A stretch of 64,000 bases of DNA from a virus (Duplodnaviria > Caudoviricetes): positions 41,908-105,907 of IMG/VR virus record IMGVR_UViG_3300037455_000462; one strand, written 5' to 3'. Shown in pieces: positions 4,407 to 59,062 of the stretch. The translations under genes and the position numbers were made by a program. Under the pieces are notes generated by a model. The model was not told the origin of the DNA, did no database searches, and was given only the letters and a program-made list of their open reading frames with translations. Positions within the stretch are counted from its first letter, which is position 1. Each line of letters begins with the position of its first letter.

Positions 4407-4414
4407 TATTTATA
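4407..4414 (-). promoter_or_regulatory. T4-type late promoter TATAAATA
   Basis: Exact motif 30 nt upstream of the ORF start at 4377. Confidence 0.7.
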
Positions 4415-5156
4415 TGTTACGGGGATTCTGTTTCTGAAATTCATTTATGTCAACTTTAACCCAATCAAGATGTTCGCGTTTGTCCATCAAAATGTACCAA
4501 TGACCGCCGTAGTCACTTTCCTCCCAACACAACTTCGCGTAATAGATGGTTTTTCCGTGTATATCCATCAGAGGGTATCTGAACATTCTGTCGGATGAAA
4601 CGTCTGTTGTCAATTCGCATTTGTCGTAATATTTCGCGGGGACATAATCCGCCCTCGCATAAACACGGAATCTTCTGTACTTCATCAAAGAACGCAATCC
4701 GTCCGCAATATCGTCATAATCGTACAAATGAAATATCTCGTATTGTTCCTCCGTATTCATAAACGCAGGCATAATGCAGCAGAACGCATCAGAACGCTTA
4801 TGCCCAACGACATACCCGTTCTTTTCGAGTATGCGTATAGCATTGTCTATGTCGTTGGAGTTGACGGGAAACTTCCAAACCTCGTGTTCTATGTCGCAGT
4901 CTTTGTCGATAAACACGCCGCCGACCCGTGACTTGAACACGGAGTATTCCGTGTTTTTGTCATCAATGTCATACCACATAAGACTTGAAACGAGTGCCAC
5001 GGCGACCGCTTTCATCCTCTCCACGTTGTTATTCGGCATTTCGTTGAATTTGTTGAATTCGTCCTTTTTGATTTTCAGATTCGACAATGACGCTCCGAGG
5101 TTTCCGAGCCTCTCCTTGCTTATGGGCTTTATGCCGAGTTTTTTTACGCCTTCCAT
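4410..5156 (-). CDS. Hypothetical protein with KLGIKPISKERL leader
   Basis: 248-aa ORF; N-terminal motif shared with ORFs at 28799, 29219, 43364 and 59062. Confidence 0.7.
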   Translation of the reverse strand: MEGVKKLGIKPISKERLGNLGASLSNLKIKKDEFNKFNEMPNNNVERMKAVAVALVSSLMWYDIDDKNTEYSVFKSRVGGVFIDKDCDIEHEVWKFPVNSNDIDNAIRILEKNGYVVGHKRSDAFCCIMPAFMNTEEQYEIFHLYDYDDIADGLRSLMKYRRFRVYARADYVPAKYYDKCELTTDVSSDRMFRYPLMDIHGKTIYYAKLCWEESDYGGHWYILMDKREHLDWVKVDINEFQKQNPRNI

Positions 5157-6569: not shown

Positions 6570-7916
6570 TCAGTTCTTTATCGTTTTCTTCAATGACTTC
6601 AAGTCATCCAAATACATATCAGACGGAACTTTCTTTCGCATTTCTTCAAGTTCTACCTTTTTGGAATCCCGCTCTTTTATGAGTTCGGCATACCTTTCCT
6701 TGGTAAGCGAATAAATCGGCATATTTATCAGATAGTCGAATGAATTTGAAACCTTGTCGAACTTGTTTGCTTCAAGCCAATCGCAGATTTCCTTTTTCGG
6801 GACGTTGTTCACTTTCAGTTTCTTGTCGATTATGGACTTCACGAAACGCGCCTTGTTCGTCAGCACCATAAGTTCCTTTTCGAGAACGCCTATCAGATAT
6901 TTCTTGCGTTTGTCATACCAAGTGAGTCGGTAGTCGCAGAAATAAGGAACGATGTCTTCCGCCTTGTCGAATTGCAGAAGCCTGCCGTTCTCGTCAAGTG
7001 TAACGACATTCTCCGTTTCCGAACTGTTTATGTGAAGCACGCTTTCGAGTTTGTTGGATTCGATAAGTTCCTTCAGTGCCGTGCGTGTGAATTTCACCAC
7101 ATAATCGACAACTGACGAACTGTTGTTGTCATAATCCACAATCACCTTTTTGTCAACAAGTGAGTCAAGGTATTCCTCGTATTTCTCGAATGTTATGGAC
7201 GGCGGCAAATCCGTCACCCTAACGGTGGTTGTGTTTAACACCTTGTAAACACCCGATATGAGCCACTTGTTTTTGTTTTCCTTATCCCTTGTGTATGTGC
7301 CTCCGAACTCCGCGAGCCAAGGCTTCAGTTCCTTCGGCTTTTTTCCGTTGAGATGCGCTATGCAGGCATCAACAACCTCAACGGGATTTCTGTTGAGTAT
7401 GTTCGTTGAATACCCCACCGCTATGCCTGGACTTCCGTTCAGCAGCAACGTTGGAACTATCGGCAGAAAAAAGTTCGGCTCTACTACATAGCCTTCCTCG
7501 ATTCTGTTTTCAAGCAACTCAAAGTCCTTGTATAAAAGTCTGAAATTTTTGGAAAGTTTTGTTCCGATATAACGGGGCGCACCCGCTGACGGAACACGGA
7601 GGCTTCCGTACTGACCGTAGCCTTCAAGCAGCGGCAGGCTGTTCTTGAAAGTCTGCCCCATATAGGTTATCGCATCGTACATACTTCTGTCGCCGTGCGG
7701 GTACAACGCCATAGACGAAACATATCCGCCGAATTGAAAAACCTTCATAGATTTCTCGTTCCCGTTTTTCCAAATCTTGTTCGCAACAAAAACAATCTTG
7801 CGCTGAACGGGCTTGAACCCGTCAATGCAACTCGGTATAGCCCTGTCCTCAACAACCGATTTCGCGAACAGCCGTTGGTCAACATCCAAAAAGTTGTCAA
7901 TAGTCCTTAATTTCAT
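6570..7916 (-). CDS. DNA topoisomerase II medium subunit (gp52/GyrA-like)
   Basis: RAIPSCIDGFKPVQRK, YPHGD, APRY active tyrosine, GIAVGY. Confidence 0.95.
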   Translation of the reverse strand: MKLRTIDNFLDVDQRLFAKSVVEDRAIPSCIDGFKPVQRKIVFVANKIWKNGNEKSMKVFQFGGYVSSMALYPHGDRSMYDAITYMGQTFKNSLPLLEGYGQYGSLRVPSAGAPRYIGTKLSKNFRLLYKDFELLENRIEEGYVVEPNFFLPIVPTLLLNGSPGIAVGYSTNILNRNPVEVVDACIAHLNGKKPKELKPWLAEFGGTYTRDKENKNKWLISGVYKVLNTTTVRVTDLPPSITFEKYEEYLDSLVDKKVIVDYDNNSSSVVDYVVKFTRTALKELIESNKLESVLHINSSETENVVTLDENGRLLQFDKAEDIVPYFCDYRLTWYDKRKKYLIGVLEKELMVLTNKARFVKSIIDKKLKVNNVPKKEICDWLEANKFDKVSNSFDYLINMPIYSLTKERYAELIKERDSKKVELEEMRKKVPSDMYLDDLKSLKKTIKN

Positions 7917-8464
7917 CTTACATTCTCCTTATACGAGTTCTTAAACAATGTGTCGAACACGCCACCGTAATAGCCTTCCTCCGCCATAATGGACAAAGCC
8001 TCCCTATAATCCCACTCGCCTATTACATTGTAGTCGCCTTTGTCCTTGCTGTCAAGCAGAAAATCCACGGTGACATCAAAATAATAGTCGCCTATTTTGT
8101 TGAAAGCGTGGTCTATCGGTATTCCTATTACAGTCATATATCCCTCCACGTACTTAACTTCGGGGTTTTCCATAACCTGCCCGTTGACGCTCAACTTACC
8201 GATTGATTCAAGTATGTTGGCTGCGTGGAGGGAATTGCTGTAACATTCCTTTTTCTGAAATCTCCCGTACTTGCGAAGTCTGTCGATGACATCGGACTCG
8301 AACAAATCGTAAACCGAATGAATCTCGATTGGGCGCAGGCAGGAGAGTTTCCTTTCGAAATATTCCTTTTGGTAGCCAGAAGAAAGTCGGGCGAAGTTCT
8401 TCAGCATATTCGCCGTAGAATGGTCGTCCGACTCCGTTATAAACTCAATATATTTCTTAACCAT
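7913..8464 (-). CDS. Hypothetical late protein with capsid-targeting-like N-terminus
   Basis: Begins MVKKYIEFITE; TATAAATA at 8483-8490. Confidence 0.65.
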   Translation of the reverse strand: MVKKYIEFITESDDHSTANMLKNFARLSSGYQKEYFERKLSCLRPIEIHSVYDLFESDVIDRLRKYGRFQKKECYSNSLHAANILESIGKLSVNGQVMENPEVKYVEGYMTVIGIPIDHAFNKIGDYYFDVTVDFLLDSKDKGDYNVIGEWDYREALSIMAEEGYYGGVFDTLFKNSYKENVR

Positions 8465-8485: not shown

Positions 8486-10063
8486 TTATACCTGCTTGGA
8501 AGCATCGGTAAACAAATCGAATTTGAGTGTCGGGTATGATTCATAATTTGTTATCTTGATGTCGCTCGGCTCTAATCTCAAAAGCCTCTCGTATTCATCG
8601 TGGAACGGGTCAAAGGAGAGGTATATCGGAATCTCAATACCAGCCGCACCGAACAAATACGGATTTCTGTTGAGCATACGCTTCACGCCGTCAATGTGGT
8701 TTTTGTAGATGTGTGCGTTTCCGAGAGAACCTCCGAGCATTTTCGGAATCATATTCACTGTTTTTGCGATTACACACAGCATAACGGCGTAACTCATTAT
8801 GTTGAACGGAACGCCCAAAGCCATATCGCAGGAACGCTGAATCCAACGCAGACTCAAATAATGTTTCGGCACACCATATTCTTCCATAGCGTCCTCCTCG
8901 TTGCCTTCTCTGTCATCTTCCTCGCGTATCATTCTTTCTTCAAGAATGCGCTTCCTTTCCTCGTATGGAATAGGCTCTGTGTAGAACTCCATAGCGTAGT
9001 GGCAGGGCGGCAAAGCCATCTCGTCCATACGCTTCGGATTCCAAGCGGAAACAACAAGCCGTCTGTTGTTCGGGTCGTTTTTCAATTTGTCCATAACCTC
9101 TTTCAGTTGGTTGATTCCGCTGTTGTCGAAATCAGTCCACTGCGAACCGTAAATCACGCCGACATCGCCGTAAGTGTAAACTTTGTCACCGAACTTGGTG
9201 GATGAACCGAATTCCACGTTCTTCATAAAAGTATCGAAGTCAACAACCTCGCATCCGTCAGCCTTCGCAAGCCTCAAATAGTATGCGTATGCGTCCTTGT
9301 CCCAAATATGAACGTTCCGCTCGACAAGATATTTGATGTTCTTGCAGCCCTGCAAAAACCAAACAAGTTCAACGACAACAGACTTCAGAGCCATTTTCTT
9401 CGTTGTGATAACTGGCAGACCCTTGCGCAAGTCAAAATGCAGGTGGGCATCAAACAGACTTCTCGCCGTGCCGACCCTTGTCGGTGTGTCAACGCCGTTT
9501 TCAAGAATGTCGCGAAGCAGGTTGAGATACTGCACGTCACAATGTGATTCGTGGCGTTTGCGGAAAATATTCAAAAAAATGCACTCATCGTCCTTATACA
9601 CAATGTCCTTATGATACAGATTGGTGTTCAGCATATCAAAATAAGGAAAATACGTGTCGAACTTGTTTTCGTAGCCTTTCTTTATGATGCTCAAATAAAC
9701 GGTGTCAGCCAAGTCGTTGTCCATCAACTCCTTGAAAAGTTTAGCACCACCGATATAATACACTTCCTTGTAACCCTCGGCTTCAACAACGCTTTCGGCT
9801 TCCGCGATGCTGCCGACTATCCTCGGCATATTCTCATCCGTGGCGTTCATAGGCGCATAGTTCTTGTCACTTGTGACAATGACATTAAATCTGTCTTTTA
9901 GGGGATGTCCTATTGATTCATAGGTCTTTCTACCCATAACAACGGCGTTGCCTTTTGTCAGTTCGACAAAACGCTTCATATCCGTTTTGTTTTTCCAAGG
10001 CATACCGCCTCCAATCCCGATTCCTCCATCGGGGCTTGCTGCTGCAACAATGTTTCTAATCAT
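8486..10063 (-). CDS. thyA: Bifunctional dihydrofolate reductase-thymidylate synthase
   Basis: DHFR motifs MPW, VVMGRKTYESI, IGGA; TS motifs MALPPCH, QRSCD, GVPFN, AHIY. Confidence 0.95.
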   Translation of the reverse strand: MIRNIVAAASPDGGIGIGGGMPWKNKTDMKRFVELTKGNAVVMGRKTYESIGHPLKDRFNVIVTSDKNYAPMNATDENMPRIVGSIAEAESVVEAEGYKEVYYIGGAKLFKELMDNDLADTVYLSIIKKGYENKFDTYFPYFDMLNTNLYHKDIVYKDDECIFLNIFRKRHESHCDVQYLNLLRDILENGVDTPTRVGTARSLFDAHLHFDLRKGLPVITTKKMALKSVVVELVWFLQGCKNIKYLVERNVHIWDKDAYAYYLRLAKADGCEVVDFDTFMKNVEFGSSTKFGDKVYTYGDVGVIYGSQWTDFDNSGINQLKEVMDKLKNDPNNRRLVVSAWNPKRMDEMALPPCHYAMEFYTEPIPYEERKRILEERMIREEDDREGNEEDAMEEYGVPKHYLSLRWIQRSCDMALGVPFNIMSYAVMLCVIAKTVNMIPKMLGGSLGNAHIYKNHIDGVKRMLNRNPYLFGAAGIEIPIYLSFDPFHDEYERLLRLEPSDIKITNYESYPTLKFDLFTDASKQV

Positions 10064-25729: not shown

Positions 25730-26584
25730 TCAAAACAAGCCTTTTCGTGAGCATCCCTTCAGATACAGACTTTCCTTTACGATAGTGTCGTTCCTGCTTC
25801 CGAAAATCCTTGTGTAGGAACTGTTGCCGCTCAACACGTACTCGTGTCTGTCATAAAGGTATCTCGGAACTTCGTATGTATTGTCGTCATCCCCGTTTAT
25901 TCCGTTGAACGAAAGGGCGTATGGACATTTCAATTCAAACATCCAATTCCAAAGTTCCTCAAAGTCGATAGAACCGAAATACATCCCCTTTGTGTTCGCA
26001 TACGGCGGGTCAAGGTAAACAAAGTCATTTGCATTCGGCTTTATGTCACTATACGTGCAATTTATGAATTCAACGTCATTCTCATTCAAAAGAGAATTCC
26101 ACTCATACACAATGGTCGCGAGTTTATCGGGTTGTATGCCATCCCGTGTCGCGTGATATGTATTGTTGAAATTACCATCCTTGTTGAACCTCGGAACACC
26201 GTTTGTCGTTGTGCGCATAATGAACATAAAGTCAAGCGGGTCTTTTGTCTCGTTATAACGAGAACGAATACCAACGAAGTAATCTTTCTTTTCCTCTATA
26301 CTCTTTTTCTCGTGAATACCGCGCCACAATTCGCGGTAATGCTCAATCACATCGTAAGGTCTGTCCTTTATCGCGTTCCACAACTCGATAAGGCTTCCGT
26401 TCAAATCGCTGCACACATAGCGACCAACCTTGATTTTGCTCGAAAGCAGCCTGCGCAAAACACTCGCACCGCCGCAAAACGGCTCGTAGTATGTTTCTAT
26501 TTTCTTCGGGAAATATCCGATTATATATTCCGCTTGGCTGCGCTTGCTGCCGCTCCACTTGATTACGGGTTCAAACATTCTCAA
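25730..26584 (-). CDS. Dam/D12-class adenine DNA methyltransferase
   Basis: KWSGSK, EPFCGG, RFNKDGNFN, DPPY. Confidence 0.9.
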   Translation of the reverse strand: MRMFEPVIKWSGSKRSQAEYIIGYFPKKIETYYEPFCGGASVLRRLLSSKIKVGRYVCSDLNGSLIELWNAIKDRPYDVIEHYRELWRGIHEKKSIEEKKDYFVGIRSRYNETKDPLDFMFIMRTTTNGVPRFNKDGNFNNTYHATRDGIQPDKLATIVYEWNSLLNENDVEFINCTYSDIKPNANDFVYLDPPYANTKGMYFGSIDFEELWNWMFELKCPYALSFNGINGDDDNTYEVPRYLYDRHEYVLSGNSSYTRIFGSRNDTIVKESLYLKGCSRKGLF

Positions 26585-27838: not shown

Positions 27839-27846
27839 TATAAATA
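27839..27846 (+). promoter_or_regulatory. Late promoter TATAAATA
   Basis: Upstream of the plus-strand three-gene island starting at 27863. Confidence 0.7.
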
Positions 27847-27862
27847 TTAAAAATATTCAGCG

Positions 27863-28783
27863 ATGAAAATATACACAGTCACAGAACTCACAAGAATACT
27901 TGAAGGAAAAGAGGGTATATGCAACGGTATGACCCTTGACGAGATTTCCGACAAATACGAGAATTTCAAGGGAAGCGACAAATCAATGCTCCGCTCAATC
28001 TTGCAACTCCTTTCCGATATGGAATACACGGAGAACTATCTTGACGTGCTTAACGAACTGCTTTCCGACAAGCGTGTCCGCAACATTATGAAAAAAGGAT
28101 TCGGCGGTATTTGGGCTGATATGGACATAAGGGTTTCAACGGACACCACGGTTAGAACCGACATTGTAATCCCCACACAGAACGAGATTGATATGACGAA
28201 GAGCCTCAAATGGGGTCTCACCAACCACGGGAACACAATCGAGCATATCCACAAGAAATACCCTATGCTCAAAGGCACGCCAATCGTGACGTTCAACGGC
28301 AAATACATCATTGACGGACATCACAGATGGTCGCAGATATACTGTATGAACAAGGTTCGTGACGGAGAGCCGACAAAGTTCGCCGCAATCAATCTCGTGA
28401 ACAAGGACGTTGACCCCATCGACATTCTGAAAATCACACAGACAACGATAGGAGTGGACTTGCACCCAGAGGAAATTGTGCCGCACGTCACAACCGAAAA
28501 CCCGAAGAACAACCTTCTGAACAAGGCGTGCAGCGAGGAAATCCTTAAAGAGTACATCGAAAACAAGATTTCTGACGATACTGTAAGCCGTATGATTGAA
28601 TACCACAAGAAAGACGGTCTGAAAGACAAAAACAGCGTCATCGGTTTCATACTGAAGAACTCGCTCGAAATGAAAGAGAACAACAACTGCATAGACGATG
28701 CCCCGAATCGCGGTGCTATGCCGCAGACCGATGCGGACAAAAACCTCTTCAACCACATCAAAAAGACATCCGACATATCATAG
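27863..28783 (+). CDS. ParB/Srx-like domain protein
   Basis: PTQNEI and YIIDGHHRW motifs. Confidence 0.75.
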   Translation: MKIYTVTELTRILEGKEGICNGMTLDEISDKYENFKGSDKSMLRSILQLLSDMEYTENYLDVLNELLSDKRVRNIMKKGFGGIWADMDIRVSTDTTVRTDIVIPTQNEIDMTKSLKWGLTNHGNTIEHIHKKYPMLKGTPIVTFNGKYIIDGHHRWSQIYCMNKVRDGEPTKFAAINLVNKDVDPIDILKITQTTIGVDLHPEEIVPHVTTENPKNNLLNKACSEEILKEYIENKISDDTVSRMIEYHKKDGLKDKNSVIGFILKNSLEMKENNNCIDDAPNRGAMPQTDADKNLFNHIKKTSDIS

Positions 28784-28798
28784 AACACAACCGATAAT

Positions 28799-29212
28799 AT
28801 GGAACACATAAAAGACTATAAGTCGTTTATCGGGGAAAAGATGAACATCGCCCCTATGACAAAGGACAGACTCGACAGAATAAGCAAGGGCGAGGGGCTG
28901 TTCTACGTGTACAAGGACACGGACGGCGAATCGGTCTATGTGAGCGATTTCCCGTTGAGATGGGACGGCATAGAGGGAATCGGAAAATATAGGGATTTCA
29001 ACGATGCCGTGAAATCCATATCGAACTACGACACAGCGAACACGCTGTATTCCGCGAACATAGCGAATACAGTGATGGACACTTTCAAATACGACACACT
29101 TGACAAGATATATGAAAACGGAATCCGACTGTTCGACCCGAAGAAAAAAGACTTCGAGTCAGCCGTCTTGCCGACAATAACCGATGTTGTGAGATACATA
29201 TTAAAACATTGA
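28799..29212 (+). CDS. Putative head-packaged protein, single repeat unit
   Basis: KSFIGE-KMNIAPMTKDRL leader; domain homologous to the three units of the next gene. Confidence 0.7.
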   Translation: MEHIKDYKSFIGEKMNIAPMTKDRLDRISKGEGLFYVYKDTDGESVYVSDFPLRWDGIEGIGKYRDFNDAVKSISNYDTANTLYSANIANTVMDTFKYDTLDKIYENGIRLFDPKKKDFESAVLPTITDVVRYILKH

Positions 29213-29218
29213 CGGAAT

Positions 29219-30583
29219 ATGCTGAATTACCAAGAATACATAAACGAAAAACTGAACATCGCGCCCGTCACAAAGGAAAGGCTTGACAAGATAACGCACA
29301 GCATACGCGATGAGAAAAGCATCAAGATATACAAGAACAAATATACCGAACTGCTAATCAGCAGAGACAAAATAGACTCAACCGACTACAAAGAAATCGG
29401 TTCATTCGATACATTGAAAGACGCTATCCGCTTCAAGGGTGAAAACTACCAAAAGCAGACCGTACTGTATTCTATGTTCTTGGCTGTGGAATTGATGGAT
29501 TTGTTCGGTTACAAAAAATTGGAAGAACTGTTCAGCGGTGGATTTGAACTTTTCGACCCGTCCTCGATATACAACAAAGGCGAATTGACAATAATCATCG
29601 ACACCACCGACTACTTCAATGCCATACAAGAATACAATAGGCTTGAGTTGTATAAAAAGATGCAGGAAGACGCTAAAAAAAGGATGCAGAAGAATGAAAA
29701 GGAACAAATGATGAAAGACCTCTGCGGGAGGTTGTCATACAGCGTCACCGAAAAACTGAACATTTCCCCCGTTACAAAAGAAAGGCTGTCCAAACTAACA
29801 GATAAATTACACAAAGACAACAAAATACGTTTGTATCAAAGCAAAGACAGAGAAATCATAGTCAGCGAAGAAATAATCGACTCAAGAAAATTCAGCGAGT
29901 TCAAGTCATTCAACAAAATAGAAGACGCGCTGACTTATTTGGATTCATACACAAAAGGCAAGACCACTCCCGTTGTGTATTCTATGCTAATGGCGGAAGA
30001 AATGAGGGACGCGCTCAATTACAAATCAATAAATGACTTGTTCGACAACGGATTTGTGATGTTTGACCCGCTGACAATAAACAACAATTATATATCCATT
30101 GTATGCACGGAGGAAGAATACATAAACGCTATGCTTTATTACACAATGAATAAACGCGACCTTAACGTCTCGGTAAAACAACCTATGGCAAACGGTGGAT
30201 TGTCGGAAAAACTGAACATAAAACCAATCACCAAAGACAGACTTGGACGATTGAAAGACAACCTCGGCATACACATCTACCAAGACCATTATGGCGAATG
30301 CCTCATAAGCAGGGAGGAAGTAAAAAACAGCAGATTCACAGAGGTGGCAAAGGTGAGCGATTTAAGCGATGTGCTAAATTGGATTGAGGAATACGACCCT
30401 ACCGCCGCCATATATTCAATACATTTGGTCAAAGACCTAATCGAAGAATTCGGATATTCATCTTTGGAAGACGCTTTTGAAAACTTTGCCGTTTCGTGTT
30501 TCGACCCGTCAGATGCGTCCGATGTGATAACGGTAATCGAAGATATGGAAAACTATGAACGTGCTATGAAGAACGCAAAATAA
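29219..30583 (+). CDS. Putative head-packaged polyprotein of three homologous units
   Basis: Three E-KLNIxP(V/I)TKxRL motifs, each followed by a YS...FxY...FDP domain. Confidence 0.75.
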   Translation: MLNYQEYINEKLNIAPVTKERLDKITHSIRDEKSIKIYKNKYTELLISRDKIDSTDYKEIGSFDTLKDAIRFKGENYQKQTVLYSMFLAVELMDLFGYKKLEELFSGGFELFDPSSIYNKGELTIIIDTTDYFNAIQEYNRLELYKKMQEDAKKRMQKNEKEQMMKDLCGRLSYSVTEKLNISPVTKERLSKLTDKLHKDNKIRLYQSKDREIIVSEEIIDSRKFSEFKSFNKIEDALTYLDSYTKGKTTPVVYSMLMAEEMRDALNYKSINDLFDNGFVMFDPLTINNNYISIVCTEEEYINAMLYYTMNKRDLNVSVKQPMANGGLSEKLNIKPITKDRLGRLKDNLGIHIYQDHYGECLISREEVKNSRFTEVAKVSDLSDVLNWIEEYDPTAAIYSIHLVKDLIEEFGYSSLEDAFENFAVSCFDPSDASDVITVIEDMENYERAMKNAK

Positions 30584-30588
30584 ACGGC

Positions 30589-31302
30589 TCATTTCAGACA
30601 TATCCTCACATACAAATCATCCCGCACACCCTTATAGAAATATCCGAAACTCGGAATACGCAGATACATACCGTTGCGTAAACGCATAGGTGTCTTTATG
30701 TACCTTCCGACACCGTTCACCTTTATGTACATAATATCCCGTATATCGTTTTTTCTCATATAATAGTAATACACGAGAACGTATTTGCCATAATGCTTCT
30801 TGAACGAAAAGTTTTTGTCGAGCGCGAATTTAACTGACAAAAACATATTGACGCGAAAACCGCCGACCTTTTTGCCCATACCTTCGTAGCACACAACATC
30901 CCCTATGCAGATTTTCGGCGGAATGGTGACGGTCACGCTGTCGCCGTTGTCGTAGGTTATGGTTCTTATGCAGCCGTTAAAACCCTCTTCGAGCGTTATG
31001 ACAACCTCGACACGGGTATCTTTTTCCGTCATCTTCGGTTCTTCCGACTTTTTGCGTTTCAATTCGGCACGCTCCTTGCGATGCTTGACACGATATCCCT
31101 TGCAGATTCGGTTGTAGGCATCGACAATTTTCTTATACAGTTCCTCGTCACCGCCTTTGTCGGGGTGTTTGAACATCGACAGCACTCTGAACTGATGCTT
31201 GACTTCATTCAAGTCAGCATTGTCTTGTAATCCGAGAGTCTTGTAAGGGTTGTCGGAATCAACGAACACGCCGTTTATGTCACCGCCGCTCATATCGCAC
31301 AA
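30589..31302 (-). CDS. DnaJ-domain protein
   Basis: NPYKTLGL, HPDKGG, ITLEEGFNG. Confidence 0.88.
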   Translation of the reverse strand: MCDMSGGDINGVFVDSDNPYKTLGLQDNADLNEVKHQFRVLSMFKHPDKGGDEELYKKIVDAYNRICKGYRVKHRKERAELKRKKSEEPKMTEKDTRVEVVITLEEGFNGCIRTITYDNGDSVTVTIPPKICIGDVVCYEGMGKKVGGFRVNMFLSVKFALDKNFSFKKHYGKYVLVYYYYMRKNDIRDIMYIKVNGVGRYIKTPMRLRNGMYLRIPSFGYFYKGVRDDLYVRICLK

Positions 31303-32145: not shown

Positions 32146-34083
32146 TCAGAACAGTCTCTTCGGGCGTTTAACGGTTTTTTCTGTATAGACACGCTTCAAA
32201 CCCTCTCCTTCAATGAGAGCCTTTTTGCGCAATGACGAATCACCGCCAAACCAAACATTGAGTTTCTCATCGCTTTTGTCGGTTATCTCGTAATAGTACA
32301 GCCGTGGGTTCTTTATGATTTCCTCATACTCGGAATCCGTTAGGGCGGCAAGACCTTTCTTGTACGAAACGTCCCACTTGGAAGCATCGTTCTTTTTAAG
32401 CCAATCCTCCCACTCGTCATCGTAGTAGAAGTCTATGCGCTTACCCGTTTTCTTGTTTTTCGCTATAATCACGGGGGTTTCACAACGGGCGATTCTGTGT
32501 TCCCTAAACAGTTCTGGCCACCATCTCTCAAACAGATTCACCAACAAACTCGCGCAACTTATGCCGTCCACATCGGCATCGCTGTAAATGTATATCTCTC
32601 CGTAGCGCAGGTTGTCCTCAACCAAGTTGCCGCTTTTGTCATAGACAAACGGGCTTTTGCCAAACTGCAAGCCGAGCGCACCAAGTATGCTCTTTATTTC
32701 CTCGTTGGCGATAGCCTTTGATTCGCTGACTTCCCTCACGTTCAATGATTTTCCTTTCAGCGGGAACGCGCCTTGCGTTTCGGGGTCGCGGTATTTGCGG
32801 AAACCCGCCATAGGGCTGTCGCCCTCGCATAGCATAAGCGTGCATTTCCTGCGGTTCTTGCCTTTCGCCTCAACGAGTTTGTTTATCTTGACTTTCGCTA
32901 TCTCCTTGTTGGCGTTGCGCACGGCGGCTCTGTCGTCCGCCTCCGCCTTTCTCGAAACCCAATCCATAATGGAGTTGGTGATTTCGGAATTGAACACAGA
33001 CTTCAAAGTCTTTTCCGTGACAGTGTGGCTTGTGCCGAAATTCCTCGCATCGGTTATGAGTTTCTCCTTTGTCTGCGAACTGTACGCTGGGTTCTCGACA
33101 GAGCAGGACACAAACACCCAAAGTTTGTTCTTGATGTCGCTCGGCTTCAAGTCAACCTTGTGGCGTTTCTTGATACGCTCGCGAAGATAACTCACAACTT
33201 GGTCTGCTATATAGTTGACGTGCGTGCCGCCGTCCTTCGTTTCGGCAGAGTTTACAATCGAAATCTGCGTGAACGAGTCTGCGGGCGCGAAACCCACTTC
33301 CCATCCTTTGCCTTTCTCGAATATCACGTTATCGCAGTACATACCGCAATATGCCTCGAATGACTTGAAAGCGAACAGTTTGCCGTTGAACTTGATTTTC
33401 AGATTCGGGTTGGTGGCGGCAGCGTCAATCACACGCTTCTGCATCATAAGCAGATGGTCTTCGTCAATGGATGAAATGCCAAATCTTTTCAAGTCGGGTT
33501 CAAATGTAATCTCCGTGTATTTCTTCTTGCTATCCTTGACTTTCGGCTTTGACTGTTTCGACATATTGTTCTCGAACACCTGCGCGAATTCCTTTTTGCC
33601 GTCAGCGGTCTTGACCGTGAACTTGGTGGAGAATATGTTTGTCAACGTAGCACCAAGCCCGTTTGTACCGACCCAATCCCTTTTTTCCGTGTCATCGAAA
33701 TTAGAGCCTGCGCGTAGTTTGGAAAATATGAGCGTTGGGACGTACATTTTCTCCGTCTTGTGCATCTCAACGGGAATACCTCCGTTGTCATATACTGTTA
33801 TCGTGTTTTTCTTCGAGTCAACGGTTATGTTGATTGCGTTGAGTTTTCCGTTGCGCTTCGATTCGTCAACGGAGTTGCTGAATATCTCGTCAAAGAGTTT
33901 CAGCAGGGCGGGAACATAGCGGACGCAGCGTTCCGTGAACCTGCCGCTTTTCTCATCATACACCCATTCGGTAACGGGTTCGGTGAGAACGGTAGAACCG
34001 ACATAGGTTCCAGGTCTCAAGAGGACGTGTTCGGTTTCCGTCAGACTCTTGTATTTTTCCTCAATGCTTTTCTGTTTTGCCAT
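32146..34083 (-). CDS. DNA topoisomerase II large subunit (gp39+gp60/GyrB-like)
   Basis: EHVLLRPGTYVGS, DNGGIP, GTNGLG, EGDS, DADVDG. Confidence 0.95.
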   Translation of the reverse strand: MAKQKSIEEKYKSLTETEHVLLRPGTYVGSTVLTEPVTEWVYDEKSGRFTERCVRYVPALLKLFDEIFSNSVDESKRNGKLNAINITVDSKKNTITVYDNGGIPVEMHKTEKMYVPTLIFSKLRAGSNFDDTEKRDWVGTNGLGATLTNIFSTKFTVKTADGKKEFAQVFENNMSKQSKPKVKDSKKKYTEITFEPDLKRFGISSIDEDHLLMMQKRVIDAAATNPNLKIKFNGKLFAFKSFEAYCGMYCDNVIFEKGKGWEVGFAPADSFTQISIVNSAETKDGGTHVNYIADQVVSYLRERIKKRHKVDLKPSDIKNKLWVFVSCSVENPAYSSQTKEKLITDARNFGTSHTVTEKTLKSVFNSEITNSIMDWVSRKAEADDRAAVRNANKEIAKVKINKLVEAKGKNRRKCTLMLCEGDSPMAGFRKYRDPETQGAFPLKGKSLNVREVSESKAIANEEIKSILGALGLQFGKSPFVYDKSGNLVEDNLRYGEIYIYSDADVDGISCASLLVNLFERWWPELFREHRIARCETPVIIAKNKKTGKRIDFYYDDEWEDWLKKNDASKWDVSYKKGLAALTDSEYEEIIKNPRLYYYEITDKSDEKLNVWFGGDSSLRKKALIEGEGLKRVYTEKTVKRPKRLF

Positions 34084-35799: not shown

Positions 35800-37794
35800 C
35801 TATTTCGATGTGACGCTGAATTTGAGTTTGTTGTTTTTCTTGTCAACGCCGACACTCACCTTGTTCTTGCCATCGCCGTCATTGATAATCAAGTCGGTTA
35901 TCTCATCGGATATGTCGTGTTGGATTGAGCGTATCAATGCCCTCGCGCCCATTTTCTCCTCCGCAGACTTCTTCACAATGAACGTCTTTGCTTCGCCGCT
36001 GATGGAAAGTGAATATCCGAGGTCGGAAAGCGACTGTCTGACTTCCTCGATTTCGTTGTTGAAAATCTTTTCGAGTTCGGACTCTCCGAGTTCGTTGAAA
36101 TAGCAGATGCTGTCGATTCTGTTCAAAAACTCTGGTGAGAAAATCTTGTTCACCGTTTTCTCTATGATTTTCTTTCGGTTTTCCTCGTTCCGTCTTTCCA
36201 AGTCGTCCTTTTCCGATGCAAAACCTATGACACCGCCTGCGTTTTTAGCCTCCTTGACACCCGCGTTGCTTGTGAGTATGATGATGGTGTTGACGGCTGA
36301 ATGCTTCACGCCGTTGGCATCCGTTATGTAGCCTTCGTCAAGCAGTTGGAGTATCGTGTTGAAAATGGACGGATGCGCCTTTTCGATTTCGTCAAAAAGG
36401 ATGACAGAATAGGGGTTGTTCTTGATTGCGTTGCAGAGAACACCGCCCTCGCCGTAGCCTACGTAGCCAGGGGGCGCACCAATGAGTTTGTTCACGCTTA
36501 TTTCATCGGAATACTCGCTCATATCAAGGCGAACCATAGAATCCTCCGAACCGAAAAGATACTCGGAGAGTTTCTTCGCGAGGAACGTCTTGCCGACACC
36601 CGTAGAGCCGAGGAATATGAAATTGCCTACCGTGTGGTTTTTCTTGCGGATTCCGAGTCTGTTTCTCTTGACGGTCTTGCAGACCATAGACACAGCCTCA
36701 TCCTGCCCGATGACCTTTTTCGATATGTCGCTCTCCATATTCTTCATCCTCGCCATATCGCTTTCCGTGAGTTTGGCAACGGGAACTCCCGCCATATCGC
36801 TGATTGCGGAAAACACGTCCTCGTCCGTTATCACGTTGTCGGTCTGCGACTTGAACGCCATAGAACTCAAATCGTTGATTGAGCATTCAAGGTCGGAAGC
36901 CTCCTCGTTCAGTTTCAGAATCCGAAGCATACTGTCCTTTATGCTGCCGTCATTGTGGTTGACGGCATCCTTAATCTCGTTTTTCTTATCCTCAAGTTGG
37001 GAAGCCCGTTTCGCGATGTGCGAGTCTGGCGTATGCACCCTATTGGCGTGCCTTGCGTAAATATGCTCCATAACAAGCACAGCCTTTTTCGGCATTTGGA
37101 AACCGTTTTTGACATACTTGTCGGAGAGGGCGACAATCTTGTCGGTTGTCTGCTCGTCCATAACGGTTCTGAAATACTGATTGTAGTGCGAGATTTTCTT
37201 GTGGAGGATTTCCTTCGTGTTCTCGATGGACTGCGGCTTGACATTGATTCTCGTGAAGTGGCGGAGAAGGTCGTACTTGTTCTCTATGCTCTTGAGTTCG
37301 TTGTTGTTGCAGCAGCAAATGACCTTGACACCGTATTTTATGGCACGCTCGATATGCTGCCATATCATAAGGTTCACAACATTGTCGTTGATTATGGAGG
37401 CTATGTTGTCGATGAACAGAACACGCTTGTCGTGTTTGTCCATAATGTACTCGAACACGCTGTTAAGCCGTTCCTCGTAGTCGGAAACCTTCTGTATGCC
37501 ATCGGTGAGGCGCAACTGAATGAGTTCCCATATCTTCATATTGTAGAACGGCATAGGTGATTTGTATGTGTCGGCGAGATATTGTATGTGCTTCACAAGG
37601 GAAGTCTTGCCAACGCCGTTTGCGCCCGTGATTATGACGTTGTTCTGCGGTATCAGCAGAGCGTCAAATACACGTCTCGCATAGTCCTCGAAAAAAAGTG
37701 ATTCAACGCCTTCGACCTTATCGAGGCATTGGTTTTCTGGTTTCGTGTCCCCGTAAATCTTAACGGGTTCGCCTTTCGGCATATCAATCTTCAT
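35800..37794 (-). CDS. ClpB/ClpC-like AAA+ chaperone
   Basis: GANGVGKT, VIGQDEA, GSTGVGKT, DMSEY, GAPPGYVGY, FDEIEKAH. Confidence 0.92.
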   Translation of the reverse strand: MKIDMPKGEPVKIYGDTKPENQCLDKVEGVESLFFEDYARRVFDALLIPQNNVIITGANGVGKTSLVKHIQYLADTYKSPMPFYNMKIWELIQLRLTDGIQKVSDYEERLNSVFEYIMDKHDKRVLFIDNIASIINDNVVNLMIWQHIERAIKYGVKVICCCNNNELKSIENKYDLLRHFTRINVKPQSIENTKEILHKKISHYNQYFRTVMDEQTTDKIVALSDKYVKNGFQMPKKAVLVMEHIYARHANRVHTPDSHIAKRASQLEDKKNEIKDAVNHNDGSIKDSMLRILKLNEEASDLECSINDLSSMAFKSQTDNVITDEDVFSAISDMAGVPVAKLTESDMARMKNMESDISKKVIGQDEAVSMVCKTVKRNRLGIRKKNHTVGNFIFLGSTGVGKTFLAKKLSEYLFGSEDSMVRLDMSEYSDEISVNKLIGAPPGYVGYGEGGVLCNAIKNNPYSVILFDEIEKAHPSIFNTILQLLDEGYITDANGVKHSAVNTIIILTSNAGVKEAKNAGGVIGFASEKDDLERRNEENRKKIIEKTVNKIFSPEFLNRIDSICYFNELGESELEKIFNNEIEEVRQSLSDLGYSLSISGEAKTFIVKKSAEEKMGARALIRSIQHDISDEITDLIINDGDGKNKVSVGVDKKNNKLKFSVTSK

Positions 37795-42620: not shown

Positions 42621-43364
42621 TTATCTTTTCAGCGACATATTGAGCGGGGGCTTTATTTCGCCCATAACCGTTTTCGGCAGGTTCGCCGATTCATCTGAAG
42701 GCAGGCTGACGCAGCCTTCCATATTGAGGTCGCCTCCCACGTATTTTGGTGCGCCTTTCAGCGAAACGAGGTTTTCGCAGTCGAACAAGTCGAAGTCGCC
42801 CCCTATTCGTGACGGTGCGCCATCGATTGTTTTCAGATTATGGCAATGCGCACATTCCAAATATCCGTGGATTATCTTCGGTGCGCCCTTCAGTGACGTT
42901 ATGCCGCTTGAACTGACAATGAGGTTGCCGACCTCATTCGGCATACCTTCAAGCGATGTCAATTTCGTGCATCCGTAGCAGTTGAACAGACCGTCAACGA
43001 ATTTCGGAGCGTGTTCGAGTGATTCAAGGCTTGTGCAGTCGTGGCATTCGAAAGACAACGCGGATATGGGCGCACCTTCGAGGGTTTTCAGTTTCGTGCA
43101 GTAATTGCAGTCGAATTTGCCTTCTATCGTCCCGAATTTGAGCGGCAGTTTTCCATCGACCAAATCATCGTTCCTTACAGTCACCCTCTGTTTTGAATCG
43201 TAGCGTCTCGTTCCGATGTTGTATTTCAGATTGTAAATACGGATGAACTTTTTCGTTTTTTCATCGTGTTCTGGCTCATTGCCCATCTCGTCCAATGTCT
43301 TTTTCGATATGGGCTTTATGTCGAGTTTCTCGTTTACGAATTCAGAACTGTTCAGTATTTCCAT
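42621..43364 (-). CDS. Leucine-rich-repeat-like protein with capsid-targeting-like leader
   Basis: Repeats C..L.SLEGAP..V.G.F; N-terminus EFVNE-KLDIKPISK. Confidence 0.75.
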   Translation of the reverse strand: MEILNSSEFVNEKLDIKPISKKTLDEMGNEPEHDEKTKKFIRIYNLKYNIGTRRYDSKQRVTVRNDDLVDGKLPLKFGTIEGKFDCNYCTKLKTLEGAPISALSFECHDCTSLESLEHAPKFVDGLFNCYGCTKLTSLEGMPNEVGNLIVSSSGITSLKGAPKIIHGYLECAHCHNLKTIDGAPSRIGGDFDLFDCENLVSLKGAPKYVGGDLNMEGCVSLPSDESANLPKTVMGEIKPPLNMSLKR

Positions 43365-53915: not shown

Positions 53916-55052
53916 ATGATGTACACATTGCTTATAGACGGACACAACTTTTTGTTCAGAACGATGTATGTGTTTCCGAGCAAGAAAGGCGAACTTATGC
54001 TTTCGACTGACGAATCTCGGAAATTGTATGTGTCCAAACTCGAACAGAATCTCAATGCTGTTCTCCGCGACTTGGAGAATATCGTTGACAGATGCGTGTT
54101 CATTATGGACTCGGCTTCTTGGAGAAAGTCGATAGAGTCCGATGTCGATTACAAGGGAACTCGCCATCAAGATGAAACCGTTGATTTCAACGGTCTTGAC
54201 AAGTGTGTAGCCGAATTCACGGAGATTGTGAAAAACTACAACGTGACGGTTTCCAAGACAAAGAAAGCGGAGGCTGACGACCTTATATTCTATTGGTCTA
54301 ACGTCCTCACGGCAAAGGGGATTCCCGTGATTATGTACACGAGTGACAAGGATATGCTCCAACTTGTGCGCAGCGTGAACGGCGTTCCGTCAGTCCTATA
54401 TTCTGATGTCACTAAAAAAATGTACACCCCGAAGGATTTTCTGAAAGGAAAGGATGTTTCGGAAACCATTTACGAGGCGTTTACAAACAAGCACAAGATT
54501 GATGTGTTTGATGAAAAAACGCAGTTCGAGTATCTCTTGAAGAAACGCAGTCTTGAAATGATTGAAGTCGATGCTGACGAGTGTCTTTTCACAAAGGTCA
54601 TTGTCGGCGACAAATCCGATAATATCTCGTCAATTTATTCATATGTCAAGAATGGGAAAACATATAACGTGACGGAGAAGAAAGCGGAGAAAATCCTTGA
54701 GAATTTCAAGGATAAGGTCGGCGGTCTGAATGCCGAATACCTATTTCTTGACGATACCGTGAACGCCCTTGCGCAATCCTGCTGCGAGGTTGTCGGCGTT
54801 GACTGTGCTGACAAGATAGCGGAGAATATCAGACGGAATACTAAATTCATCGTGCTGAATAGGAATGTGATTCCAGAGGATGTGGTTGAGGGAATGCACG
54901 AGGATGTCAAGGTTCTCGCAAAAACTATGCGCAGGGTCAAATACAACGCCTTGAAACCGCAGGAATCCGTTGTCAAGAAAACGGAGAGGATTTTCAAAGG
55001 TGTTGATGATTCCGATATGTCGTTTATCAAAGAAAAGAAAACACTGTTCTGA
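53916..55052 (+). CDS. 5'-3' exonuclease / T4 RNase H-like
   Basis: LIDGHN, YKGTR, EADD, SDKDMLQL, GDKSDNI. Confidence 0.92.
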   Translation: MMYTLLIDGHNFLFRTMYVFPSKKGELMLSTDESRKLYVSKLEQNLNAVLRDLENIVDRCVFIMDSASWRKSIESDVDYKGTRHQDETVDFNGLDKCVAEFTEIVKNYNVTVSKTKKAEADDLIFYWSNVLTAKGIPVIMYTSDKDMLQLVRSVNGVPSVLYSDVTKKMYTPKDFLKGKDVSETIYEAFTNKHKIDVFDEKTQFEYLLKKRSLEMIEVDADECLFTKVIVGDKSDNISSIYSYVKNGKTYNVTEKKAEKILENFKDKVGGLNAEYLFLDDTVNALAQSCCEVVGVDCADKIAENIRRNTKFIVLNRNVIPEDVVEGMHEDVKVLAKTMRRVKYNALKPQESVVKKTERIFKGVDDSDMSFIKEKKTLF

Positions 55053-55582
55053 TGAAAAAGTATGATGAATTTGTAGCGGAAAAAAACTACAATAAGTACA
55101 AGTCCAACAAGTATGAAGATGAGGTGAAGTCAGCCGTGTACGACTATGTTAGCGGATTGACATCATCGGTCAATGACGATTTGAGAAAAGGAAAGGAAGT
55201 CCCGTCAATCACGAATGTTTTGGACAAAGCGTTTGTTGAACGGAAAAAATTGGATGTTTATCGTACCGTTGATTGGTCGTATATGGAAAATGTGTACGGG
55301 ATAACGGAGGAAAACATCAAGGATAAAATCGGAAGCGAGATAACCAACAAAGGCTATATGTCAACGGCAAGCATTATGGAATCCCCTTGGGGCAGCAAAT
55401 GGTCGGAGAATGAGTTGGTTGTGCATATAGTCAGCGACAAAGAATACCCTTGTGTTGACATAAACAAGATGTTTGACGCGGATGAGATTGATTGCGAGGA
55501 ACAAATGGAAATTCTTGTTCCGAGAAACACGACAATCCGCTTGGTTGACGCTGAAAAAAAAGTTTGGCGGCAAGTTCTGTGA
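55052..55582 (+). CDS. VIP2/Alt-like ADP-ribosyltransferase, probably frameshifted near the C-terminus
   Basis: VYR, GYMSTAS, EQMEILVPR; N-terminus MKKYDEFVAE. Confidence 0.8.
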   Translation: MKKYDEFVAEKNYNKYKSNKYEDEVKSAVYDYVSGLTSSVNDDLRKGKEVPSITNVLDKAFVERKKLDVYRTVDWSYMENVYGITEENIKDKIGSEITNKGYMSTASIMESPWGSKWSENELVVHIVSDKEYPCVDINKMFDADEIDCEEQMEILVPRNTTIRLVDAEKKVWRQVL

Positions 55583-58621: not shown

Positions 58622-58624
58622 AGT

Positions 58625-59062
58625 TTATTTTGTTTTTCTCCTTTGTTTTCTGCTTACGGATTTGAGTGTTTCTATTTCGCGTTTGAATTCGCTGACATTA
58701 ACGATGAACGCACCCCAAGGACTTCCCCAACCTGGGTCTTCCTCCAACCCAATCATATAGTATTCGTTTTCTTTTTTGTAAATACCGAAAATGTTTTCGT
58801 TTTCTATTTCAAACTCGAATATTTTTGAATAGCCGTCCATTTTCAGAAATTCCAATGCCGCTTCCTCGTCATCTCCGAGTGTAGTCCATTCCGTATTGAA
58901 TGACACGCTTTCCCAATATGCAAACAGTTCCGTTTTGATTCTGTCCTCAATCCTGCCCTTGTTTTTCGTGTTGTTTACGATGTCCTTTATGCTATCGACA
59001 TTTATGGGCTTTATGTTCAGTTTCTCCAACAGAAATGATTTCGTGTTCAGTATTTTTGTCAT
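58625..59062 (-). CDS. Hypothetical late protein with E-KLNIKPI leader
   Basis: MTKILNTKSFLLE-KLNIKPI; late promoter at 59081. Confidence 0.7.
   Translation of the reverse strand: MTKILNTKSFLLEKLNIKPINVDSIKDIVNNTKNKGRIEDRIKTELFAYWESVSFNTEWTTLGDDEEAALEFLKMDGYSKIFEFEIENENIFGIYKKENEYYMIGLEEDPGWGSPWGAFIVNVSEFKREIETLKSVSRKQRRKTK

Follow-up and report, generated by a model that had tools for sequence, protein, structure and literature searches.

We analysed a stretch of 64,000 nucleotides (the window), which covers bases 41908-105907 of a 105.9-kb uncultivated-virus contig with an estimated completeness of 33%. In this window three + strand genes form an island at 27863-30583 that is flanked on both sides by − strand genes and in which the AT skew turns to +0.30. 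On the upstream side lie a Dam-type methylase gene, a 211-aa ORF and a second methyltransferase gene, and on the downstream side a DnaJ-like gene, a 300-aa ORF and the gene for the large subunit of topoisomerase II. The features of the island and of the wider window are as follows, in window coordinates.

27839-27846, + strand: TATAAATA, a T4-late-promoter-like motif, 24 nt 5' of the ATG of the first island gene.
27863-28783, + strand: ParB/Srx-like gene, 306 aa; the conserved anchor of the island, without a tag.
28799-29212, + strand: single-unit tagged gene, 137 aa.
28829-28873, + strand: putative cleavage site I-G-E (Glu codon 28835-28837) and 12-aa tag core.
29219-30583, + strand: three-unit tagged gene, 454 aa; the units are residues 1-168, 169-320 and 321-454.
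29219-29248, + strand: 10-aa leader resembling the T4 capsid-targeting sequence, ending in I-N-E (Glu codon 29246).
29249-29284, + strand: tag core 1, 12 aa.
29627-29743, + strand: Lys/Glu-rich linker from unit 1 to unit 2, missing in single-unit homologues.
29744-29788, + strand: internal junction V-T-E (Glu codon 29750) and tag core 2.
30200-30244, + strand: internal junction L-S-E (Glu codon 30206) and tag core 3.
30589-31302, − strand: DnaJ-like protein with J and C-terminal domains, adjoining the island.
35800-37794, − strand: ClpB-like double AAA+ protein, near the island.
42621-43364, − strand: full two-part tag on an unrelated leucine-rich-repeat-like body, with its own TATAAATA.
55052-55582, + strand: Alt-like ADP-ribosyltransferase, 176 aa (PF03496, 38.1 bits, cut-off 23.4).
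58622-59062, − strand: tagged gene with an unrelated body, with its own TATAAATA.

A first-pass annotation of this DNA had placed the island on the strand opposite to its neighbours and, together with a ParB-like gene, behind a promoter motif, and both observations were borne out. The motif TATAAATA, which corresponds to the T4 late-promoter consensus, occurs 35 times on the whole contig (G000:C1), where about eight copies are expected from shuffled sequences. These copies are nearly always found 15-37 nt before an ATG and on the coding strand, and they stand in front of the island and of about half of the tagged genes described below, which suggests that TATAAATA serves as a T4-late-type promoter. 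A single-sequence search with T4 gp55 gave no homologue, either on the contig or in the two relatives searched, and it is the motif that suggests late timing of the island. Scans of the island for sigma-70 promoters and terminators gave hits at shuffle level only, and its DNA and proteins had no match at either level in the phage GenBank collection.

The first island gene probably belongs to the ParB/Srx superfamily, and the ParB-like designation of the first-pass annotation is accepted at that level only. The 20 best structural matches of its model are all ParB, Noc, Srx or KorB proteins, at weak similarity (Z 3.9-5.2, 79-108 aligned residues, rmsd 2.8-5.7), and the motif DGHHRW is invariant in 35 homologues. 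Against Pfam ParBc_2 (PF08857) the protein scores 11.4 bits, below the cut-off of 23.6. The first 36 residues are predicted to be disordered. Altogether 808 homologues were found, typical of big phage contigs, one of which is named ParB/Sulfiredoxin in one source. Phage P1 packages DdrB, a protein with a ParB domain, together with its Dar anti-restriction cargo (PMC5512222), and the ParB-like gene of the island may be seen, by analogy, as a parallel to DdrB, in that a ParB-superfamily protein would be associated with packaged cargo.

The two other island genes encode four copies of one unit, three in the long ORF and one in the short ORF, as had been noticed at first pass. The single unit aligns to the three units of the long ORF with E-values of 2.1e-16, 7.8e-15 and 2.6e-9 (34, 32 and 27% identity), the latter are 27-46% identical to each other, and the aligned units have Y, S, YS and FDP positions in common. 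This repeat architecture is far beyond chance. Units are 134-168 aa long, and every one opens with [I/V/L]-x-E followed by KLNIxPxTKxRL. The Glu codons before the tags lie exactly where they had been reported (28835, 29246, 29750 and 30206), each followed by the Lys codon of K[L/M]NI (28838, 29249, 29753 and 30209). In an AlphaFold model of the unit, built on a 10-sequence alignment, residues 31-137 form a confident alpha/beta domain of about 107 aa (pLDDT block means 80-91), whereas the tag residues 1-20 have pLDDT values below 50, that is, they are disordered.

The domain had been described as not assignable, and it matched no Pfam, PHROG, PDB, BFVD or ESM Atlas family reproducibly in our structure and profile searches. 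Comparison with Pfam and PHROGs yielded sub-threshold and inconsistent matches only; LPD5 (18.9 bits, cut-off 27), DUF6340 and eight others each appeared in one of 14 members and were taken as chance. Foldseek found nothing in PDB or BFVD at E<=0.001, and a search of the ESM Atlas with the unit model gave no usable match. The best hit of a VIA-align search of 48,161 chains, the central domain of Pelota (Z 4.4, rmsd 3.2, 74 aligned residues), is within noise. Since neither a known family nor a known fold could be matched to the domain, a role of the units as injected anti-defence effectors is speculation.

The tag itself is not the start of the domain, which had been proposed to be of about 125 aa, and is instead a portable module common to many unrelated proteins. 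It comprises 24-27 residues, of which about 12 make up a leader that ends in aliphatic-x-Glu and a further 12 make up the core, with the pattern K-L-[N/D]-I-x-P-[V/I/M]-[T/S]-K-[D/E]-R-L. At least 11 genes of the 106-kb contig carry it at their head, in front of unrelated bodies, among them leucine-rich repeats of two kinds and members of several orphan families. Fourteen tag copies are 81% identical at codon positions 1-2 and 41% at third positions, so that selection acts on the peptide and not on the DNA; a DNA- or mRNA-level element was rejected as the nature of the repeat on the same grounds. The three tags of the long ORF have their first 14 nucleotides in common.

Beyond this contig, the tag was seen only in a handful of giant-phage contigs. 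A degenerate DNA pattern of the core was found in only four other viral contigs, of 413, 192, 144 and 85 kb. A profile search of 1.84 billion protein representatives returned 58 matches, which by the matched stretch are the tag or the same domain (about a dozen of them also have the domain described here), and nothing outside the family appeared. The loci fetched from this small clade of giant phages contain 82 tagged proteins, and library hits raise the number to 139; roughly one gene in seven carries the tag. Variants without a leader occur as well. The − strand ORF at window 4410-5156 starts only five residues ahead of the core, with Lys in place of Glu, and a DUF285-like repeat protein of the 192-kb relative (L055:1933-2553, − strand) starts with Met and the core. 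Upstream of the window, a − strand gene of the same contig (G000:C1:33025-34035) encodes two units of a different domain with the internal junction T-N-E and the core.

Multiple tags in one chain are a general property of the clade, as 27 of the 139 tagged proteins have two to four of them, mostly spaced by 138-195 aa. When fetched loci and library hits were pooled, 45 distinct internal tags were obtained. The residue before the core (P1) is Glu in all 45 and likewise in all 70 N-terminal tags. P3 of the internal tags is V, I, L or M in 40 cases and Ala or Thr in the other five, while P2, P4 and all positions further upstream are not conserved. N-terminal tags are preceded by a leader of the form M-[K/E]-I-L...[E/Q]-[Y/F]-[I/V]-[N/S]-E, and their clade logo at positions −5 to −1 is [E/Q][Y/F][I/V][N/S]E. 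Since this leader precedes N-terminal tags only, it occurs once per chain, and the Glu site with the core occurs once per unit. The same recognition sequence lies in a segment predicted to be flexible at every boundary (3/3 here, 45/45 internal tags in the clade), and some chains combine unrelated units, among them P0018, in which the domain of the island precedes two leucine-rich-repeat units. The junction pattern is what would be expected if each chain had a single targeting signal and each unit a cleavage site of its own.

Both parts of this pattern have a counterpart in phage T4. The prohead protease gp21 acts at L/I-X-E, where it cleaves behind the Glu, and for capsid targeting the N-terminal 10 residues of the internal protein IPIII are enough (PMC9026906). 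At the level of sequence, the logo of the internal tags is the gp21 logo (PMC9026906). The leader of ORF 29219 is identical to the T4 ipII/ipIII leader (taken from NC_000866) at six of 10 residues and has in addition one F/Y exchange. The T4 internal proteins are diverse except for their leader (PMC3012670), and in the window a leader of the short T4 type was found on two further proteins. ORF 55052-55582 carries the short leader only, with seven of 10 residues identical to that of T4, and its product is likely an Alt-like injected enzyme, in parallel to T4 Alt. The other is a 183-aa ORF without a family match (window 7913-8464, − strand), which has a short leader ending in I-T-E and its own TATAAATA.

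Peptidase_S77, capsid and portal genes were not found on the contig (33% complete by estimate), and we therefore infer T4-type head machinery from the relatives. Peptidase_S77 is above the cut-off (48-49.5 bits) in a 413-kb genome estimated to be complete (G001) and in its 144-kb near-twin (G003); over the stretch with the His and Ser motifs, where GEL[N/D]HP and SSR are aligned, this protease and T4 gp21 are 32% identical. A gp23-type capsid gene (PF07068, 97-98 bits) is present in the 413-kb and 192-kb relatives (G001 and G002), and the capsid protein of the former has three [I/L]-x-E-S sites in its first 51 residues. The protease ORF of the 413-kb relative (L056:2917-4860, − strand, 647 aa) continues after the protease domain with twelve repeats of an exact 14-residue period, each of which reads Y-L-A-E followed by Q/K-L. 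One repeat reads YLAE-KLN and mirrors the tag site, and the local context of these sites is the same as at the tag. The repeat region looks like a self-destructing scaffold that would be cut at every repeat, and so into 14-mers, by its own protease.

Taken together, we lean, on balance, towards the reading that the 454-aa ORF encodes a tag-delimited precursor. The 10-residue N-terminal leader, similar to the T4 capsid-targeting sequence, would bring the whole chain into the prohead core, and a gp21-type prohead protease would cleave each of the three tag sites, [V/I/L]-x-E, behind its Glu. Three proteins of about 14-19 kDa, each starting with KLNIxPxTKxRL, would be released, and ORF 28799 would be the single-unit form of the same cargo. 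We infer packaging, cleavage, late expression and ejection. A head-packaged precursor cut into several effectors had been proposed in the first-pass annotation; the processing fits every sequence test applied here, and it is the anti-defence effector part of that proposal which is left without support.

The core fits this reading less well. Conservation is higher in the 12 residues that follow Glu than in those that precede it. T4 sites, by contrast, show little conservation after the cut, and the T4 model does not account for a conserved P' side of 12 residues, which might just as well mark an uncleaved docking peptide. The long ORF would then encode a tandem-domain protein whose tags are linear motifs for docking to a common partner, such as the prohead core or a DNA-bound hub, the multi-unit proteins would be multivalent, and the leader would keep its targeting role and might be removed or not, with the internal tags left uncut. 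The leaderless variants, which start at or near the core and in one case (window 4410-5156) have no Glu, add to this, since they indicate that the core has a function of its own. Such an arrangement is the main alternative, and we regard it as less likely than the precursor. The invariant Glu, the predominantly aliphatic P3 and the variable P2 of the internal tags correspond to what a gp21-type site requires, and the protease-scaffold ORF of the relatives shows the same context, Y-[L/I/V]-x-E with K-L behind it, 12 times. Moreover, leaderless variants have the core at a free N-terminus, a position that internal copies would reach only by cleavage. It is a guess that the retained core acts as an extended recognition element for the protease or the prohead core, or as a sorting signal after cleavage.

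The position of the island among replication and methylase genes, and not among structural ones, raises the question whether the tag is related to the capsid at all. With a DnaJ-like gene adjoining the island and a ClpB-like gene nearby, the tag might mark clients of these chaperones, or be another sorting or regulatory signal, and its resemblance to the T4 leader would be convergent. This we consider unlikely. In the 413-kb genome tagged genes lie on both sides of the major capsid gene, which they flank and follow in the same orientation, about half of the tagged genes of the present contig have their own TATAAATA, and the window also encodes the Alt-like enzyme with its canonical leader. Nor would this view account for the agreement with the gp21 logo.

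In the relatives the island has the same position, between methyltransferase and DnaJ-like genes, with different contents. In the 413-kb genome three separate genes, each with one unit of the domain, are grouped around the ParB-like gene (75% identical), and a two-unit protein of unrelated units is also encoded. In the 192-kb genome the ParB-like gene is accompanied by a single unit and an unrelated tagged gene. In the nearest relative, a contig set of up to 223.6 kb, the ParB-like gene is 98% and the unit of the short ORF 91% identical, and a 134-aa one-unit protein stands in place of the 454-aa ORF. This protein has the first seven leader residues and I-N-E identical, and unit 3 follows directly on them; its identity is 83% with residues 328-454, 46% with unit 1 and 32% with unit 2. 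Its one-unit structure implies that units 1 and 2 are an in-frame gain in the present phage or a loss in the relative, with the joint inside the tag. The identity gradient of 98, 91 and 83% suggests that the units evolve faster than the neighbouring ParB-like gene, and faster divergence would fit a role in conflict without proving one.

The distribution of the long form is narrow. Homologues of the 454-aa chain all align to unit 3 only, and the three-unit form was found only on this contig and on one contig of 23 kb. A scan of JGI metagenomes for the three-unit protein found nothing, and a second JGI scan with the alignment returned only the known relatives and one 48-kb contig. Together with the single unit of the nearest relative, this restriction to two contigs is what one would see if the long ORF were a recent accidental fusion or a decaying duplicate array with the internal tags as relics. 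Such an origin is highly improbable in our view, as all three tags match the consensus perfectly although the units have diverged to 27-46% identity, the frame is open across 454 codons, and the other multi-tag proteins of the clade obey the same junction rules.

Building on the precursor reading, it is tempting to speculate on a cargo system with two signals. The removable leader would load the chain, and cleavage would bare the retained 12-residue signal for a later step, for instance DNA anchoring or ordered ejection. Because the first signal is needed only once per chain, cargo genes could be strung into polyproteins, which would be co-packaged in a fixed ratio and cut in the head, and the coding sequence of the tag would act as a recombination joint for units. 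We put this extended scheme forward tentatively, as possible rather than probable.

Several known systems resemble the one proposed here in part. As in T4 IPI-III and Alt, an N-terminal leader of 10-12 residues with the same pattern ends in aliphatic-x-Glu (PMC9026906, PMC3012670), the leader is conserved and the bodies that follow it are diverse and fast-evolving, the cargo includes an ADP-ribosyltransferase, and the clade has, in relatives, a gp21-type protease and a gp23-type capsid gene. Unlike in T4, which has four or five cargo genes and no cargo polyproteins, the tag is found here on about one gene in seven and recurs inside proteins, giving putative precursors of two to four units, and the further conserved 12-residue motif after the putative cut would remain on the mature protein. 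The phages phiKZ, 201phi2-1 and SPN3US, whose ejection and inner-body proteins are processed by proteases of the gp175/gp245 type, are likewise giant; their heads contain dozens of packaged proteins, including paralogous cargo families, and many of these are cut after Glu at short motifs (PMC9026906). They differ in having long, non-conserved propeptides with redundant sites, and their cargo has neither a portable tag in common nor tandem arrays of independent units. The capsid and protease of the present clade are T4-like and not phiKZ-like. Polyvalent proteins also combine several conflict-type modules in one polypeptide that is thought to travel with the DNA, and some of the modules are freed by proteolysis (Iyer et al. 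2017, PMC5512222). In contrast to these, the units described here are small, often repeat the same domain and have no embedded peptidase, and the head protease would do the cutting, acting in trans on a dedicated tag. Neither polyvalent-protein domains nor an embedded peptidase were found above the cut-off in the units, LPD5 being the sub-threshold match mentioned above. [quoted passage not shown]

Should the tag act in the proposed way, head-packaged cargo would be encoded by one in seven genes of these phages, with genomes of 300-400 kb. Their injected arsenal would be far larger than that of T4, and the sequence alone would suffice to recognise it. With tag-delimited polyproteins, a DNA phage would have a new route to package several proteins per targeting signal, and the orphan domains behind the tags would form a defined set to be screened against bacterial defence systems. 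The T4 leader has already been used to load foreign proteins into capsids, and the long and specific cleavage-and-tag sequence would be a ready tool for the same purpose.

Some further observations concern other genes of the window. With the ClpB-like (35800-37794, − strand) and DnaJ-like (30589-31302, − strand) proteins the phage has chaperones of its own. The Dam-type methylase (25730-26584, − strand) and the large subunit of topoisomerase II (32146-34083, − strand) both end in basic residues followed by Leu-Phe, as do their orthologues in the relatives. A bifunctional dihydrofolate reductase-thymidylate synthase is encoded by a single ORF of 525 aa (8486-10063, − strand), an arrangement that is, to our knowledge, unusual for a phage.
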